A stretch of DNA of 64,000 bases, taken from the sequence record OL631257.1, one strand, 5' to 3'. A program made the translations under genes and the position numbers. This document shows, piece by piece, positions 1,877 to 60,567 of this stretch (positions within the stretch are counted from its first letter, which is position 1; the number at the start of each line of letters is the position of its first letter). The notes beneath the pieces were generated by a model. It was not told where the DNA came from. It worked only from the letters and a program-made list of their open reading frames with translations, and did no database searches. The stretch is from Escherichia phage ECCR664.

Positions 1877-2872
1877 TCATTCCTTAAGAAGTTTTACTAC
1901 TTGAATAAGATTAGCTCGTTCTGTTTTATTTTTACCATTTAAGCCTGCTAATCGTGAGATTTCATCGTCAGTCTGTTGAATAGTTACATTAAGTTCGTTA
2001 ATCAAAGCTTCAAAGTATTTGATTTGCTCAGCATGTTTTGATTCAAATTTCTGAACCGGAATAACGTCTTGGTTTAGTTCGTCAATAAGGTCTTTAAGAG
2101 CATCTTCTTGGTTGATATCGTATTCAACTTCTTTTATTTCTTCAACTAGCTCGTCTTTATATCTAACGTCTTTTAGTCCTGGTGCTGGTCCTGAAATCTC
2201 TTCTTTAAGAGTACAAACATACCCAATACGGTATCCAGTGTCGTCTCGCTTGATATCAACTTCGTCGATAAATCCACAATGTTTGAGACCAGAGCCGATT
2301 AGGTCAAAATATCCTTGACGACGTCCTTCAAACGTTACACGAACTACTAAGACAGTTTTGCCTGCAATCTTTTGAAGCTCACATTTATAAAAGTCAGTTG
2401 AACCTGAATAACGTGGATGAGTTTTAAAGTTCATCTGTCGATCTAGGCCCATTTGTAAACGTGCTGTTACGGCCATAAAACGTGTTTGGTTCTCGTTAAG
2501 ATGAGCAACAATCCATTTCAAAGGCATTTTACACTGTTCACGACCGAACAAATCAGTACGTCCTAGATTACGCAGGATGTTGTTAGAGTTAATCATCGAC
2601 AGAACGTTAAGTTTATTCAGCGCGCTGAAGATTCCATCAGCCATTGATTTTCCGTAGCCTTTACACGCTTTAATAAGCGCTCGCGGTAGATTAGTATAGA
2701 TTTCAGACGGCATATGAAAATCAAATTTACTAACCAGTAATTGATGAACTTGGATAGCAATTCGTTCATAATTAAGCGCTCTGCGATCATTATGGTCTTT
2801 AAACCACACTTTAATCTGTGAAGCACATAAACCGTTAATTTCATGTTTTATCGCATCAGATGTAATGCTCAT
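1877..2872 (-). CDS. hypothetical protein, 331 aa
   Basis: intact 331-aa ORF, no recognised motif. Confidence 0.5.
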   Translation of the reverse strand: MSITSDAIKHEINGLCASQIKVWFKDHNDRRALNYERIAIQVHQLLVSKFDFHMPSEIYTNLPRALIKACKGYGKSMADGIFSALNKLNVLSMINSNNILRNLGRTDLFGREQCKMPLKWIVAHLNENQTRFMAVTARLQMGLDRQMNFKTHPRYSGSTDFYKCELQKIAGKTVLVVRVTFEGRRQGYFDLIGSGLKHCGFIDEVDIKRDDTGYRIGYVCTLKEEISGPAPGLKDVRYKDELVEEIKEVEYDINQEDALKDLIDELNQDVIPVQKFESKHAEQIKYFEALINELNVTIQQTDDEISRLAGLNGKNKTERANLIQVVKLLKE

Positions 2873-2934
2873 AACTATTTCCTCAGATTGAATTGGAACT
2901 CAAAACCATTATAACCCGTCCTTGGGTAAAGCGT

Positions 2935-3460
2935 TTATGCGTGAACCGTCTTTAAACGTTCTTCAAATTTCCGAAGAGTACTAATACGTTCTGCTTTCTG
3001 TTTTGTATAGTTTGCAATACGTTCTGAAGTGAGAGCGTATCGTTCGTTTACTGTTTCTTTCATGAAGTCAGGGATTTCACGAGAAGCTTTAATTTCATCA
3101 AACTTATCGAGTACTGCCTGGTCTTCAGCGATTAAATTTTCGTACATCTCGATATCTTTCTTAATGAAGTCGATATCTTCCTGTGTTACTTTGGATAAAC
3201 GAGATGCTTTATCCTTTTGTACTGCTCGTTAGTTTCACGAGACCAGAATAATGTACGTTTTTGTTAGTGTTTTTGTAGACTTCCACAATTCCAACTGAAT
3301 CGATGATAACAATCCAATTCCAGCGAGATTTGAAAATCTGACCTCCATCCACGGTAATCTCATTACCATAAGCAACGTCATTAAAGAACTTGCTTTGTGC
3401 TTCAGATTTAAATTTACCGTCGTTATAATTTACCAGGTTGAAAATATCTTTAGCGTTCAT
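2935..3460 (-). CDS. hypothetical protein, possibly one gene split by a frameshift (ORFs 3209..3460 and 2935..3147)
   Basis: two collinear ORF fragments. Confidence 0.35.
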
Positions 3461-12489: not shown

Positions 12490-12851
12490 TATAAACTCTC
12501 AGTAAAGGTACGAGCGATAACGTCGCGCTGCTGTTCCGGAGTCAGAGAGTTAAAGCGAACTGCATAACCGGATACACGAATGGTCAGCTGTGGATATTTT
12601 TCCGGATGCTTAACTGCATCTTCCAGAGTTTCACGACGCAGAACGTTAACGTTCAGGTGCTGACCACCTTCAATTTTAACTTTAGGTTGATGTTCAATTT
12701 CAATTTCACGAGCATTCAAACCGTAGAAAATTTCTGGGTCTACAATAGCGTCTTCTTTAAAAGTCTTAGAGACAATAATCCGGGCTTGAGTACCGTCTTC
12801 AAAATAAATAGTGCCTTTATGTTCACCTTCAAGAATTTGATATGCTTTCAT
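12489..12851 (-). CDS. autonomous glycyl radical cofactor (GrcA/YfiD-like; T4 Y06I-type)
   Basis: C-terminal …[25 protein letters not shown]… glycyl-radical signature, near-identical to the C-terminus of E. coli GrcA. Confidence 0.9.
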
Positions 12852-12874
12852 ATAACCTCAATTAGAAAATAAAT

Positions 12875-13165
12875 TTATCCAAGATTTTCTTTAATCAAAA
12901 ATGGGTCGGAATTAAACGCCATTAAACTTTGAGTGATTAATCCCTTAAATGGCCCATCAATAAATTCCATTTTGAAATGCGGAATACTAGTCATCAACCG
13001 TGCATTAGGAGCAGTACAAAGAACCTGCTGACCTGCGAACGGACCTTTAGTCAAACGATATCGTTTAGGTTTAAAATGGTAGATCTCGTAATTTTCTACA
13101 AGAGCCCTTTTATTGCATACTGGACTGTTATAACAATACTCAAAAACTTCAATAGTGGTCATCAT
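12875..13165 (-). CDS. hypothetical protein 96 aa
   Basis: ORF. Confidence 0.35.
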   Translation of the reverse strand: MMTTIEVFEYCYNSPVCNKRALVENYEIYHFKPKRYRLTKGPFAGQQVLCTAPNARLMTSIPHFKMEFIDGPFKGLITQSLMAFNSDPFLIKENLG

Positions 13166-13175
13166 TGCATTCCAA

Positions 13176-13700
13176 TCACAAAAATTGAGGACGAGCAGTA
13201 CCGCCTATGCAATATTTGCTTTTGCAGCAGTGCTGTACTGATTTAATATGGACATTGTAAATCTTATCCATATCAGGAGCTTTAATAGGCTCGTCAATTA
13301 TGTATAGAATACGAGAAAGCGTTAATCCACGGAATTTAGAACCTTCATTGCCAATAAAACTACGGACAGAATCAGTAAATAAACGGAATCGAATATCATC
13401 GCTAGAATAACGAGAAAATTCTTTTTAATGTTGCCAGCAGAAATTTTAGCATAAGCTGAAGTATTAGAAAGAACAATAACTGTTCCATCGTCGTGCAGCC
13501 AATTAGCAGCAAAATTAGTTACTGCAGTGGATTTACCTGATTGTCTGCCACCGTCTAAACGAAGTGTACAGTACTGCTTGAGTATGTCTTCAAATGGTGG
13601 GACATAACCATTCTTACAAATTTCTTCTACTCTAGCATCAGAATGGTGTGTAAAAGCATTCATCAGGGATAGATAAGGTCCAGTTAAAAATGTTTTCATT
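13176..13700 (-). CDS. small P-loop NTPase (terminase-like Walker A), frameshifted
   Basis: Walker A LDGGRQSGKST in ORF 13322..13747; after a -1 shift in an A/T run near 13430 the frame continues through a Walker B-like ILYIIDEP to a stop near 13176. Confidence 0.45.
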
Positions 13701-13971
13701 TTGTTCTCTCTAAGTTTGGGCCATTCCATGGCACATGAATTGTCCATTTCTGTATTTACCCATTACCGCACTTGGGCTCGACCTTATTACAGGTTGGCGG
13801 GAATCCCTCATAGAATCATGAGGTCCAGCTTGTTCCCATGTTATTTGAATGTAAATATTTTTGCCTTAATACTTATACCAGTGTGGCTTCATTAAAATTT
13901 TTTCATCGAGTCATTTTACCTCTCCAAGTAATTATGATTATACTATCACAATTCTAGGAGAAAGTAAACTG

Positions 13972-14274
13972 TTATTTACCTTTAATTACTTTAGCTGCTT
14001 CGATAGCCGCTTGCTGAAGGTCATCCATAGACATACCGAATTTAGAAGCAAAGTTATCAATTTTCTTTTCAACAGCATTCAAAGGCTTGGCCTGTTTACC
14101 TTCATTAGCGCCAGGAAGAGCGAGAATACGCTCTTTGTCAATATAAAGGCTTACAAGTTTCTTACGGTCTTTATCGGACAAATCGTGAAATGAATGGGCC
14201 TTTTTATTTATAGCGGCTTCTAATTTACCTGCACTCACTCGCGCTTCAGTAATAAATTCTTGATATGTTTTCAT
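13972..14274 (-). CDS. ipII: internal protein (IPII-like) with capsid-targeting N-terminus
   Basis: N-terminal MKTYQEFITEARV, 100 aa. Confidence 0.7.
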   Translation of the reverse strand: MKTYQEFITEARVSAGKLEAAINKKAHSFHDLSDKDRKKLVSLYIDKERILALPGANEGKQAKPLNAVEKKIDNFASKFGMSMDDLQQAAIEAAKVIKGK

Positions 14275-14365
14275 TTTTGTTTCCTTGTTTGTTTTGATAG
14301 AGTAATTATACCATATTAATACTTAAGCGTAAACTGTTTAAGCTTTACCATCGCAACCTTTTTCC

Positions 14366-14778
14366 TTAGTAAATTGATTTACCATAGTATTTGTACCAAG
14401 TAGGACGTTGAGCAATTTTTTCATCTAAACGAGCTTGACTTATCGCAATGGACGCTTCGGTCGGGACATAATTATTACGAAATTCGGCAGGGATGTCGGA
14501 AATATCTTGGACAGTCGTGTCCTTGATTTTGAAACCACGTTTCAAGCATTCAGCGATTAGCTCGATTTGACGTAAACGTAAAAATTCGAGTTTGTCGTAA
14601 AGAATGTTACATGACCTGTGCCTAAGATAAATGTCGGGGAGATTTTAAAATCCTTTACACGTTTACCGTTTTGAACATGTTTACGGACTGCACCAAATAT
14701 GCGTGGTAATTCACGATACTCAGCCATAAGATGTTGGTCGGTCAGTTCAGAAACAAGTGTTAAATTGATACGAGTCAT
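14366..14778 (-). CDS. denV: endonuclease V (pyrimidine dimer glycosylase), one frameshift
   Basis: [34 protein letters not shown]…[16 protein letters not shown] matches T4 DenV; C-terminus …[10 protein letters not shown] recovered in shifted frame. Confidence 0.9.
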
Positions 14779-14783
14779 AATTT

Positions 14784-14836
14784 CCTCCAAGTAGTTGATG
14801 AATGTATAGTATCAAAACCCTTGGAGGAAGTAAACA
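14784..14836 (-). promoter_or_regulatory. early promoter motif with inverted repeat CCTCCAAG/CTTGGAGG, upstream of denV
   Basis: GTTTAC at 14830-14835 (minus). Confidence 0.5.
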
Positions 14837-48543: not shown

Positions 48544-50867
<2,324 letters not shown>

Positions 50868-50894: not shown

Positions 50895-52876
50895 ATGGCA
50901 CTTCTCTCTCCGGGCGTTGAGCTCAAAGAAACTACCGTACAGAGTACTGTAGTTAATAACTCCACTGGTACTGCTGCCCTGGCTGGAAAATTCCAATGGG
51001 GACCTGCATTCCAGATTAAACAAATCACTGATGAAGTTGCATTAGTTGATATGTTTGGTACTCCTAATACGGATACAGCAGATTATTTCATGTCTGCTAT
51101 GAACTTCCTTCAATACGGTAATGACCTTCGTGTTGTACGCGCAGTTGATCGTGATACTGCTAAGAACTCATCTCCTGTAGCAGGCAATATTGAATTCACA
51201 ATCTCTGCCGCTGGTAGTAACTATGCGGTTGGTGATAAAATTATCGTTAAGTATTTGACCGAAACTGTTGAAGCAGATGGTTATGTCACTTCAGTTGATG
51301 TCGATGGTAAAATTCTTAACATTTATATCCCAACCGGTAAAATTATTGCTCGTGCAAAAGAAATTAATGAATATCCGGCATTGGGTTCTAACTGGACCGC
51401 CGAAGTTGCCAGTTCTTCTTCTGGACTCTCTGGCGTTATTACAATTGGTTCTATCGTAACCGATTCAGGTATTCTGTTGACTGAAGTTGAAACTTCAGAA
51501 GAAGCTATTACTTCTCTAACTTTCCAAGAATCTATTAAAAATATGGTGTCCCAGGCGTAGTTGCTCTTTATCCTGGTGAACTTGGCGACCAGCTCGAAAT
51601 TGAAATCGTATCTAAAGCAGACTATGACAAAGGTGCTTCAGCCCAGTTAAAAATTTATCCTGATGGCGGTACTCGTGCATCTACTGCTAAAGCAATCTTT
51701 GGATATGGCCCACAAACTGATGACCAATATGCAATTATCGTTCGTCGTAACGATGCTGTAGTCCAGAGCGTAGTTCTTTCTACTAAACGTGGTGAACGAG
51801 ATATTTATGGTAGTAATATCTTTATTGATGATTTCTTTGCTAAAGGCGCAAGCAATTATATTTTCGCTACTGCACAAGGTTGGCCAAAAGGTTTCTCTGG
51901 CGTAATCAAACTGAGTGGTGGCTTATCATCTAATGAAACGGTCGACGCTGGTGATTTAATGGAAGCTTGGGATTTGTTTGCTGACCGCGAATCTGTTAAT
52001 GCGCAGTTGTTTATTGCCGGTTCTTGTGCAGGTGAATCTTTAGAAGTTGCTTCTACAGTTCAGAAACATGTTGTAGCAATTGGTGATTCTCGCCAAGATT
52101 GCTTGGTTCTTTGCTCACCACCACGTTCAACTATAGTCGGTATTCCTGTTAATCGTGCAGTTGATAATCTTGTTGATTGGCGTACTGCATCAGGAACTTA
52201 CACTGATAATAACTTTAATGTAAGTTCTACTTATGCTGCTATTGACGGTAACTATAAATATCAATATGACAAATATAATGATGTGAATCGTTGGGTTCCA
52301 TTAGCTGCTGATATCGCTGGTCTTTGTGCTCGTACAGACAATATTTCTCAGCCTTGGATGTCTCCGGCTGGTTATAACCGTGGACAAATTCTTAACGTTA
52401 TTAAGCTTGCAATTGAAACTCGTCAACCACAACGTGATCGTTTGTATCAGGAAGCTATTAACCCTGTTACTGGTACCGGTGGTGATGGATATGTTCTGTA
52501 TGGTGATAAAACTGCCACTTCTGTTCCTTCACCATTTGACCGTATTAACGTTCGTCGTTTGTTCAATATGGTTAAAACGAACATTGGTTCAGCATCTAAA
52601 TATCGCCTGTTTGAATTGAACAACGCATTTACCCGTTCTTCTTTCCGTACAGAGACTTCTCAATATCTACAGGGTATTAAAGCTCTCGGTGGTGTATATA
52701 ACTTTAAAGTTGTTTGTGATACTACCAATAACACCCCAGCAGTTATCGACCGTAATGAATTTGTAGCTACTTTCTACTTACAACCTGCCCGCTCGATAAA
52801 TTATATTACGTTGAACTTTGTAGCAACAGCAACTGGTGCCGATTTCGACGAACTGATTGGTGCTGTAGGTGGTTAA
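50895..52876 (+). CDS. 18: tail sheath protein gp18 (one frameshift at A-run ~51537)
   Basis: MALLSPGVELKETTVQSTVVNNSTGTAALAGKFQWGPAFQ…; total ~660 aa as T4 gp18. Confidence 0.95.
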
Positions 52877-52988: not shown

Positions 52989-53478
52989 ATGTTTGTAGAT
53001 GACGTAACTCGTGCCTTCGAATCTGGTGATTTCGCTCGCCCTAACCTGTTCGAAGTAGAAATCTCTTATCTTGGGCAAAACTTTAGCTTCCAGTGTCGTG
53101 CTACGGCTCTTCCTGCTGCGATCGTTGAAAAGGTTCCTGTTTCTTATATGAACCGTAAAATTAACGTGGCAGGTGACCGTACATTTGACGATTGGACTAT
53201 TACAGTAATGAATGACGATGCTCATAGTATTCGTCAGAAATTTGTTGATTGGCAAGGTATTGCAGCAGGACAAGGTAATGAAATTACCGGTGGTAAACCT
53301 GCTGAATATAAAAGACTGCTATCGTTCGTCAATTTGCTCGTGATGCTAAAACGGTCACTAAAGAAGTTGAAATTGTTGGCTTGTGGCCTACTAACGTCGG
53401 CGAAGTATCTCTTGACTGGGATTCGAATAACGAGATTGAAACGTTCGAAGTAACTCTTGCTCTTGATTGGTGGGAATA
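52989..53478 (+). CDS. 19: tail tube protein gp19 (one frameshift at A-run ~53310)
   Basis: MFVDDVTRAFESGDFARPNLFEVEISYLGQNF… matches T4 gp19. Confidence 0.95.
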
Positions 53479-53563: not shown

Positions 53564-55132
53564 ATGAAATTTAATATCTTAAGTTTGTTTGCTCCATGGG
53601 CAAAAATGGACGAACGTGATTACAAAGACCAAGAAAAGAAAATTTAGAATCGATCACCACACCAAAATTAGACGACGGCGCTAAAGAATACGAAGTATCT
53701 GAAAATGAAGCACAGCAAACATATAATGCTATGTTTCAGAGAATGTTCGGTAGCCAAGAACCAGGGCTCAAATCAACGCGTGAATTAATCGATACGTATC
53801 GAAATTTGATGACGAACTATGAAGTGGATAATGCAGTCTCTGAAATAGTTTCCGATGCTATCGTATATGAAGATGATACAGAAGTCGTTTCTATAAATTT
53901 AGACAACACAAAATTTAGTCCAAATATCAAATCAATGATGTTGGATGAATTTAACGAAGTGTTAAATCATTTATCTTTCCAACGTAAAGGTTCAGACCAT
54001 TTTAGACGTTGGTACGTAGATTCTCGAATTTTCTTCCATAAAATTATTGACCCTAAACGCCCTAAAGAAGGTATTAAAGAGCTTCGTCGTTTAGACCCAC
54101 GTCAAGTTCAATATGTCCGTGAAGTTATTACAACCACTGAAGCTGGTGTTAAAATAGTCAAGGGTTATAAAGAATATTTCATTTATGACACATCACACGA
54201 ATCTTATGCTTGTGATGGTCGCATATATGAAGCTGGCACAAAAATAAAAATCCCTAAAGCCGCGATTGTTTATGCCCATTCTGGTTTAGTTGATTGTTGT
54301 GGTAAAAATATCATTGGTTATTTGCATCGGGCTATTAAGCCGGCGAACCAATTAAAACTTCTTGAAGATGCCGTCGTAATTTATCGTATTACTCGTGCTC
54401 CAGATCGTCGTGTATGGTACGTTGATACAGGTAATATGCCTTCAAGAAAAGCAGCAGAACATATGCAACATGTTATGAATACGATGAAAAACCGTATTGC
54501 ATATGATGCCACTACAGGCAAGATTAAAACCAACAGCATATTATGTCGATGACCGAAGATTATTGGTTACAACGACGTGATGGTAAAGCAGTAACAGAAG
54601 TTGATACATTACCGGGTGCAGATAATACTGGAAATATGGAAGATGTACGTTGGTTCCGTAATGCGCTTTATATGGCTTTACGTATTCCTATTACCCGTAT
54701 TCCAAGCGACCAAGGTGGTATACAGTTTGATGCTGGTACTTCTATTACACGAGATGAATTGTCATTTGGTAAATTTATTCGTGAGCTGCAACATAAATTT
54801 GAAGAGATATTCCTAGACCCGCTTAAAACTAATTTAATTCTTAAAGGAATTATTACAGAAGATGAGTGGAATGATGAAATAAATAATATTAAGATAAAAT
54901 TTCATCGGGATAGTTATTTCTCGGAATTAAAGGATGCTGAGATTCTGGAGCGTCGCATTAATATGCTTCAGATGGCCGAACCATTTATTGGTAAATATAT
55001 TTCTCACAGAACAGCTATGAAAGATATTCTTCAGATGTCTGACGAGGAAATTGAACAAGAGGCTAAGCAAATTGAAGAAGAGTCGAAAGAGGCTCGTTTC
55101 AAGACCCCGACCAAGAACAAGAGGATTTTTAA
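53564..55132 (+). CDS. 20: portal protein gp20 (at least three frameshifts)
   Basis: [25 protein letters not shown]…; …[13 protein letters not shown]…; …[32 protein letters not shown]… matches T4 gp20. Confidence 0.95.
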
Positions 55133-59284: not shown

Positions 59285-60567
59285 ATGAGTAAAATCCAAA
59301 AATTATTGCGTGAATCTACAACGTCTACTAGCAACTCAATCGGTCGCCCAAATCTCGTTGCTTTGACTCGCGCTACGACTAAATTAATATATTCTGACAT
59401 TGTGGCAACACAAAGAACTAATCAACCTGTTGCTGCTTTTTATGGTATTAAATATCTTAACCCAGACAACGAATTAACATTTAAAACTGGTGCTACTTAT
59501 GCCGGTGAAGCTGGATATGTAGACCGAGAAAAAATTACCGAGCTCACAGAAGAATCAAAAGTCACACTAAATAAAGGCGATTTTTTCAAATATAATAATA
59601 TCGTCTATAAAGTGTTAGAAGATACACCGTTTGCAGATATTCAGGAAAGTGATCTAGAATTAGCTCTTCAGATTGCGGTCGTTCATTTAAAGGTACGGCT
59701 ATTTTCAGATGCAGCGGTAACAAGCAAATTTGAAAGCTCTGGTAGCGAAATTTCTGATGCAAGATTCCAGATTAATAAATGGCAAACTTCAGTCAAATCT
59801 CGTAAACTTAAAACCGGCCTCACGGTTGAATTAGCGCAAGATTTGGAAGCGAATGGATTTGATGCCCCTAACTTCTTAGAAGATTTGCTTGCTACTGAAA
59901 TGGCTGATGAAATTAATAAAGATATTCTTCAGTCTTTAATTACTGTATCGAAACGTTATAAAGTTACTGGAATTACTGACACCGGATTTATTGACTTGAG
60001 CTATGCGTCTGCTCCGGAAGCAGGTCGTTCGTTATATCGAATGGTGTGTGAAATGGTATCACACATTCAAAAGAGTCAACTTATACTGCAACGTTTTGCG
60101 TAGCTTCAGCTCGTGCAGCTGCTATTCTTGCTGCTTCGGGTTGGTTAAAACATAAGCCGGAAGATGATAAGTACCTTTCACAAAATGCTTATGGATTCTT
60201 GGCAAATGGATTACCTCTTTACTGCGATACCAACAGTCCGTTAGATTATGTTATTGTGGGTGTTGTAGAAAATATCGGCGAAAAAGAGATTGTAGGGTCC
60301 ATCTTTTATGCTCCATACACTGAAGGAATGGATTTAGACGACCCGGAACATGTCGGTGCATTTAAAGTTGTAGTTGATCCGGAAAGCTTACAACCGTCTA
60401 TAGGTTTATTGGTTAGATATGCTTTATCAGCAAATCCTTACACAGTAGCAAAAGATGAAAAAGAAGCTAGAGTAATTGATGGCGGGGACATGGATAAAAT
60501 GGCAGGACGTTCAGACTTGTCTGTTTTACTCGGTGTTAAATTGCCTAAAATTATTATAGATGAATAA
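59285..60567 (+). CDS. 24: capsid vertex protein gp24 (one frameshift at A-run ~60069)
   Basis: two fragments totalling ~427 aa; gp23-like fold expected from position and size. Confidence 0.9.

Follow-up and report, generated by a model that had tools for sequence, protein, structure and literature searches.

Escherichia phage ECCR664 (sequence record OL631257.1) carries, in the 64,000-nucleotide stretch of DNA analysed here (the window), a small P-loop gene whose reading frame is interrupted, which raises the questions of which protein it encodes, whether the gene is really broken, and what such a protein might do for the phage. According to the first-pass annotation, which was made from the sequence alone, the motif LDGGRQSGKST lies in an ORF at 13322..13747, and after a shift the frame continues through ILYIIDEP; both were found as described, on the minus strand. 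The second frame (13176..13433, minus strand) ends in ...CCKSKYCIGGTARPQFL followed by a stop codon, and its translation reads ...EFSRYSSDDIRFRLFTDSVRSFIGNEGSKFRGLTLSRILYIIDEPIKAPDMDKIYNVHIKSVQHCCKSKYCIGGTARPQFL up to that stop. The annotation also placed a single -1 shift near 13430, where a break does lie, and overlooked a second gap (Table 1).

The closest database relative is Escherichia phage vB_EcoM-ZQ3 (Mosigvirus), which shares 99.6% identity over 701 nt, and over this length the window differs from ZQ3 by two one-base gaps and one base substitution and by nothing else. In an alignment of the window with ZQ3 and phage moha, both of these relatives have six bases at each of the two gap sites, which bears out the suspected homopolymer indel in the gene. 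An uninterrupted reading frame is absent from the window because of the two gaps, and the second of them replaces the true C-terminus, ...PQFFVIGMQ and stop, with a false end, ...PQFL and stop. When the sequence was corrected, one contiguous frame with both Walker A and Walker B was obtained, and its product of 179 aa agrees with the small P-loop ATPase (~175-180 aa) that had been predicted. Exactly the same ORF is annotated, intact, in ZQ3, whose protein matches the window in two frames by tblastn at 98.8-98.9% identity.

Table 1. Features of the window discussed in the text (positions counted from the first base of the window).
Feature	Position	Strand	Remarks
Reconstructed vs.8 CDS	13162..13699	-	179 aa plus stop, reading through two one-base gaps
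Start codon (ATG) of vs.8	13699-13697	-	
Stop codon (TGA) of vs.8	13164-13162	-	overlaps the vs.7 ATG
Walker A / P-loop, DGGRQSGKST	13526..13555	-	residues 49-58
Walker B, ILYIIDEP	13287..13310	-	residues 131-138, with the Asp-Glu pair
First frame break	13422..13426		T5 on the plus strand, A5 on the coding strand; six bases in relatives
Second frame break	13180..13184		A5 on the plus strand, T5 on the coding strand; six bases in relatives
vs.7 ortholog (T4 Y06J, PHROG 2049)	12875..13165	-	start overlaps the vs.8 stop (ATGA)
Candidate structured RNA	13714..13835	-	~122 nt; covariance model R1, 71.7 bits, E 1e-20
AT-rich inverted repeat, CUCCUAGAAUUGUGAU...AUCAUAAUUACUUGGAG	13922-13961	-	shortly past the stop of the ip-like gene; contains TATAAT
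Example stretches with frame breaks	49031-50861, 50895-52873, 52989-53476, 53564-55130, 59285-60564, 14366-14790		

The same kind of damage runs through the whole record. Compared with ZQ3, the whole window shows 94 one-base deletions and 30 one-base insertions, 66 of the 94 deletions hit runs for which ZQ3 has a length of 5 or 6 bases, and six-base runs number 14 in the window as against 60 in the corresponding ZQ3 DNA. When ZQ3 proteins were aligned with the window, gp17, gp18, gp19, gp20, gp24 and denV were each split over two or three frames at 96-100% identity, and the broken genes thus include those for the essential large terminase, portal, sheath, tube and vertex protein. Because a phage with all those genes broken could not exist, the breaks represent under-calls and not pseudogenisation or programmed frameshifting. 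Judged from these comparisons, both breaks in vs.8 are homopolymer under-calls of record OL631257.1 and the gene would be intact in nature; the frameshift belongs to the record, as a sequencing error, and not to the gene itself. Since the gaps are ascribed to record-wide homopolymer errors, the broken frame is no argument against counting the product as a Vs.8 protein, and any other frameshift or pseudogene in the window should be discounted as an artefact as well.

A truly frameshifted vs.8, decaying as a pseudogene in ECCR664, was considered very improbable. Two frame breaks are indeed present in the window as given, vs.8 is a non-core accessory gene, and a few records (P0013, P0018, P0019 and P0027) contain no more than fragments of it. 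However, breaks of the same type occur in the terminase, portal, sheath, tube and vertex genes, they are strongly skewed to deletions in runs of 5-6, and, gaps aside, the protein keeps 98.8-98.9% identity to that of ZQ3, with no sign of relaxed selection. Programmed ribosomal frameshifting, which might have joined the two frames at the A-rich, slippery-looking run A AAA AG, has next to no probability and is effectively refuted by the single frame with A6 in the compared relatives (ZQ3 and others), besides leaving both the second, unrelated break and the identical defect in essential genes to be explained.

Sequence and position identify the gene as the ortholog, in Mosigvirus, of vs.8 from phage T4. 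The first-pass annotation considered it unassignable to a known T4 protein, but over residues 1-179 the repaired protein shares 87.7% identity with the annotated vs.8 of T4T (tblastn), and the gene is syntenic with that of T4 Vs.8 (Y06K). PHROG 1488 is matched with an E-value of 4.4e-78 over profile positions 2-177 of 177, and 1010 phage records match the repaired protein, nearly all of them over at least 80% of its length. In the record of phage S143_2 the gene is labelled as homologous to T4 y06K, whose product goes by the name of '25.0 kDa protein in regB-denV intergenic region'. As well, the neighbours are annotated alike in ZQ3, moha, S143_2 and T4T, with denV or internal-protein genes followed by vs.8 and vs.7, and across 35 T4-like loci from IMG/VR the gene order is e – (ip genes) – denV – vs.8 – vs.7 – (vs.6/grcA) – vs.5 – vs.4 – (vs.3) – regB – vs.1. 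A gene for vs.7 is detectable directly downstream of vs.8 in 29 of the 34 full-length loci, and a Vs.8 homolog of ~22% identity occupies the same position even in a distant 167-kb T4-like genome.

The ATGA overlap between vs.8 and vs.7 (Table 1) is compatible with translational coupling. In the window the C-terminus of vs.7 is damaged too, by a homopolymer gap near 12889; a protein search with vs.7 returned three homologs only, and its AlphaFold model (pLDDT 49) is unusable. Several GenBank records label vs.8 and vs.7 both as 'endoribonuclease', which is apparently the RegB label propagated in error.

In T4, Vs.8 is annotated with an N-terminal extension of 37-40 codons, for example in two T4 records at 2390-3040 (L006) and 754-1413 (L079). 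Homologs begin M(K/R)(T/Y)(F)LT, and the additional T4 codons overlap a structured RNA element. Because this element lies within the extension, and an in-frame stop shuts the extension off in each of the other loci (27 of 27), the 179-aa form starting MK/MR-TFLT is probably the real protein, and the start annotated in T4 probably lies too far upstream; in the window itself, too, an in-frame stop is located within or behind the extension.

The RNA element is ~122-145 nt long across loci and lies between the denV/ip genes and vs.8, in a region that is GC-rich (GC 0.41-0.49 across loci). Its DNA is conserved even where Vs.8 is only 35-45% identical. Different phages open different frames in it, and the region was judged not to be coding. 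The predicted architecture starts with a variable 5' hairpin, followed by a three-way junction P2/P3/P4 with the core ACCUGUAAUAAGGUCGAGCCCAAGUGCGGUAA, a P5 stem and a P6 hairpin; the P3 loop reads GUAAUA, the junction is closed by GGUAA, and P5 carries a conserved GGAC loop. The structure was worked out manually, and a covariance model built from 11 sequences served to refit it. With this model the window yields exactly one copy. Of the 36 related loci searched at first, 35 have one copy or two, and the element is also present in all four further T4-like loci that a pattern scan supplied. The T4T copy lies at 2366-2487 of L006, and one or two copies are present in nearly all of the loci L007-L041. 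Moreover, in the IMG/VR collection the DNA pattern of the core is confined to 37 T4-like contigs, with one occurrence per contig.

Conserved pairing is supported by covariation. Among 37 distinct model-aligned sequences, 87.7% of cells are paired, as against 23-43% when the partners are slid, and 14 of 32 pairs have changed on both sides, values that 0 of 500 shuffles reach, although the structure was derived from some of the same sequences and the alignment was fitted to the structure. The G-U pairs tie the structure to the sense strand. Folded as a single sequence, the window element has an unremarkable energy (z -0.25), and support for the element is therefore comparative only. RNAalifold, run on a raw MAFFT alignment of the upstream region, returned two short hairpins only. 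A long-range helix between the 5' flank and the segment GGAAUGGC, and an alternative P2 register, were both dropped, since on hand inspection the local P6 hairpin and register (i) suit the variants better. Rfam 15 gave no match at E-values up to 1 for window positions 12500-14500 or for 10 related loci, no tRNA or tmRNA was found in the element, and literature searches of the searchable papers for a described RNA in the denV-vs.8 interval returned nothing relevant. The element is absent from two distant T4-like phages.

An internal-protein gene stands between the element and vs.8 in four loci (L024-L026 and L028, around 2426-2590), and three loci carry a tandem partial copy, consisting of the 5' hairpin and the junction, followed by a full copy (L015 2718-2973, L027 2725-2979 and L040 2747-2888). 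Apart from these tandem cases, there is essentially a single copy in each T4-like genome. The element is thus not strictly a vs.8 leader. In the four loci with the intervening gene, only a P6-like hairpin is left beside vs.8, and the ORF map of L024 shows the inserted gene. Taken on the comparative evidence, the element is a candidate new structured RNA. If real and functional, it would be a new conserved non-coding feature in one of the best-studied phage genomes; it is more unusual than the vs.8 gene and deserves a separate look.

An AT-rich inverted repeat (Table 1) resembles promoter or stem-loop elements described beside internal-protein genes of T-even phages (PMC2839356). As a sigma-70 or T4 early promoter within the RNA element or immediately upstream of it, TATAAT at 13942-13937 was considered and rejected as unproven: GTTTAC, 21 nt upstream, is too far away, and a promoter scan made no call. 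With this spacing, a promoter function of the repeat is doubtful.

Vs.8 is a stand-alone single RecA-like domain of the ASCE P-loop class and a homolog of ATPase subdomain I of the large terminase gp17. With the sequence of the same phage's gp17, pairwise BLASTP finds only a weak P-loop match (E 0.098), and hhalign against the single gp17 sequence gives a probability of 21%. The best Pfam match is Terminase_6N (E 0.0015, 18.6 bits, below the cut-off of 22), with generic AAA families next, while a PHROG large-terminase family is matched at E 2e-5, and 9 of 45 Vs.8-family representatives match Terminase_6N on their own. When 45 Vs.8-family sequences were compared by hhalign with an alignment built from T4-type TerL ATPase domains, the two families matched over residues 26-159 with a probability of 98% and an E-value of 2.4e-13; the relationship becomes clear only with alignments on both sides. 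In that match GRQSGKS stands in register with SRQLGKT, FRG with VRG and ILYIIDEP with MIYIDEC, and the strand and helix that follow the P-loop are aligned as well, which upholds the terminase-like Walker A and the Walker B that the first-pass annotation had proposed. The AlphaFold model (pLDDT 81.8, pTM 0.83) is a single alpha/beta domain, and the top Foldseek matches include the P74-26 terminase ATPase domain as well as helicases.

Searches of other kinds gave little. Sequence searches of the PDB, with the single sequence and with a profile, yielded no match of note, only a TraD-like coupling protein with an E-value of 0.03-0.1, NCBIfam gave no match, and PADLOC gave weak AAA-type matches only. 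No terminase-length protein was listed by a profile HMM search of 1.84 billion representative proteins. With a Pfam score below threshold and a single-profile search that lists small proteins only, the homology to the terminase requires profile-profile or iterated searches to be seen.

ATPase subdomain II and the RNase H-like nuclease domain are absent from Vs.8, which ends at residue 179, apparently at the position of the terminase coupling motif. Because the protein stops there and family members measure 57-259 aa, Vs.8 is a homolog of one terminase subdomain and not a terminase. An identity as a P-loop nucleotide or nucleoside kinase, or as a zeta-toxin-like kinase, had been suggested and would suit the small size and the GxxxxGK[ST] loop, but it is extremely improbable: the Walker B, hhhhDE, is of the type usual for ASCE ATPases, no kinase family matches in Pfam at E-values up to 1, the profile homology goes to the terminase ATPase, and no nucleotide kinase occurs among the Pfam, PHROG, hhalign or Foldseek matches. 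Taken together, the statements on the identity of Vs.8, on the artefact and on the fold are held with very high confidence.

Across 22 homologs, down to 38% identity, DGGRQSGK, R113, R124-G125 and E137-P138 are invariant, which argues that the Walker motifs are not a chance occurrence. In the same 22 sequences, I135 and D136 of the Walker B are nearly invariant; L5, Y9, L10, L12, M13, A15 and F16 of an N-terminal helix (LTxxYLxLMxAF), as well as F63 and W67, are invariant or nearly so; and at the C-terminus G177 and Q179 are invariant, with F173, F174 and V175 (FFV) nearly so. The cysteines of the Cys-rich tail, which had been singled out as a feature, are confined to close relatives and are not a family-wide character.

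The profile search of the 1.84 billion representative proteins collected 59 family members. GRQxGK[ST] and hhhh[DE]E are preserved throughout the core family, whereas a distant sister branch (about 10 of the 45 representatives: P0056, P0060, P0065, P0066, P0070, P0072, P0074, P0075, P0077 and P0078) has R[QR]SGH[ST], with VDCA or VDVS where DE would stand and with F[IL]FVE at the end. This branch has thus lost both the P-loop Lys and the catalytic Glu, which indicates that catalysis is dispensable in some relatives, and its proteins are presumably non-catalytic or use a different chemistry. In a structure search of BFVD, unrelated large and jumbo phages (201phi2-1, EL, Phabio, Desertfox, JA29, Aes012 and phiP4-3) proved to have small, uncharacterized proteins of ~145-175 aa that share this single-domain ATPase fold. 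Comparison of these predicted models suggests a wider class of stand-alone mini-ATPases.

We are confident in the joint reading of the gene as a T4 vs.8 ortholog, disrupted by errors of the record, that encodes a terminase-type single-domain ATPase. According to a recent study, in which T4 proteins were screened against the immune sensor EcAvs2 with AlphaFold 3 (Nature Communications, August 2026; PMC13601566), T4 vs.8 is homologous in sequence to the T4 terminase ATPase domain, Walker A and B included, so that the finding on Vs.8 is known already, both in its kind and in its details. The same study reported that vs.8 has a toxic effect if expressed together with EcAvs2 and that EcAvs2 is activated, modelled vs.8 in the terminase pocket of EcAvs2 with a bridging ATP, and put forward anti-defence as one possible natural role of vs.8 (PMC13601566). 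The neighbouring gene vs.3 encodes TadIV-1, an anti-Thoeris sponge for the type IV Thoeris signal (PMC13243611).

As to mechanism, the conserved residues would allow Vs.8 to bind Mg-ATP through K56 and S57 of the P-loop and to hydrolyse it with D136 and E137, helped by the conserved R52, R113 and R124. The protein probably acts as an oligomer or on a partner, which the invariant N-terminal helix might hold. Since Vs.8 copies both the fold and the ATP site of the terminase ATPase, bacterial Avs2 can take it for a terminase, as has been published for T4 vs.8.

Any specific physiological role can be assigned only tentatively. Our best guess, of low confidence, is that Vs.8 is an accessory ATPase in the interplay of phage and host defence rather than in DNA packaging. 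A rival reading, possible though unlikely, is that Vs.8 works mainly as a structural mimic of the terminase ATPase which titrates or misdirects terminase-sensing immunity, with ATP needed for the mimicry and hydrolysis unneeded. The terminase fold with its ATP site, the predicted placement in the Avs2 pocket with bridging ATP, the anti-Thoeris gene vs.3 in the same block, the sister branch that lacks the catalytic residues yet keeps the fold, and the suggestion of an anti-defence role by the authors of the Avs2 study (PMC13601566) are all in line with mimicry. However, EcAvs2 is activated and not blocked, and this activation, the only phenotype known, would harm the phage, which speaks against Vs.8 as a simple decoy for EcAvs2; the core family conserves the catalytic Glu and the arginines, for which pure mimicry would have no need, and no inhibited defence system is known.

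A combined proposal goes further and is less probable still: that the upstream element belongs to an undescribed class of phage RNA (a cis-regulatory leader, a riboswitch-like three-way junction or a stable small RNA) common to many Tevenvirinae, hidden until now because T4 annotates the region as the N-terminus of Vs.8, and that Vs.8 itself is an ATP-dependent mimic of the terminase ATPase directed at terminase-sensing immunity.

The ATPase subdomain of gp17 contacts neighbouring subunits and the small terminase. Given its homology to that subdomain, Vs.8 might instead act on the packaging machinery, co-assembling or competing with gp17 or gp16 and so delaying or tuning packaging. This appears improbable, as subdomain II and the C-terminal domain are missing from Vs.8, nothing in gp17 corresponds to the invariant N-terminal helix of Vs.8, and vs.8 lies in the denV-regB accessory block, ~35 kb from the terminase genes.

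Vs.8 is topical because it reproduces the terminase ATPase fold as an independent, naturally occurring protein and is able to trigger Avs2. Of use for further work on it are the 179-aa form as the probable real protein, the conserved catalytic motifs of the core family, and the sister branch without catalytic residues.

Compared with known systems, the protein encoded in the window is closest to T4 Vs.8 (Y06K, PHROG 1488), with which it shares sequence, neighbours and motifs, and differs from it in that the T4 protein is annotated with 216-219 aa from the more upstream start. With ATPase subdomain I of gp17 (Terminase_6N; PDB 2o0h) it shares the ASCE fold, the Arg-Gln P-loop (GRQSGKS as against SRQLGKT), an RG motif ahead of Walker B, a Walker B ending in DE, and apparently also a last beta-strand with a short polar motif behind it. 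Unlike gp17, Vs.8 has neither subdomain II nor an RNase H-like nuclease/translocation domain, carries no conserved counterpart of the adenine-binding Gln, possesses the extra, invariant N-terminal helix, and is encoded in the accessory block away from the terminase genes. Where gp17 has its TTT coupling motif, Vs.8 has GMQ, within a C-terminus that reads VIG[MT]Q in the family, a position across which the local hhalign alignment is not reliable. The matches to SF1/SF2 helicases (for example DDX1, Mfd, RIG-I and RecD2) cover RecA1 only, at 8-16% identity; helicases need a second RecA-like domain for the ATP site and for movement on nucleic acid, whereas Vs.8 has one. Finally, compared by their description, the non-terminase Avs2 activators Ksap1 and Ksap2 are likewise small proteins of particular phage taxa that resemble the terminase ATPase core; their similarity is one of secondary structure only, in contrast to the sequence homology and Walker motifs of Vs.8 (PMC13601566).
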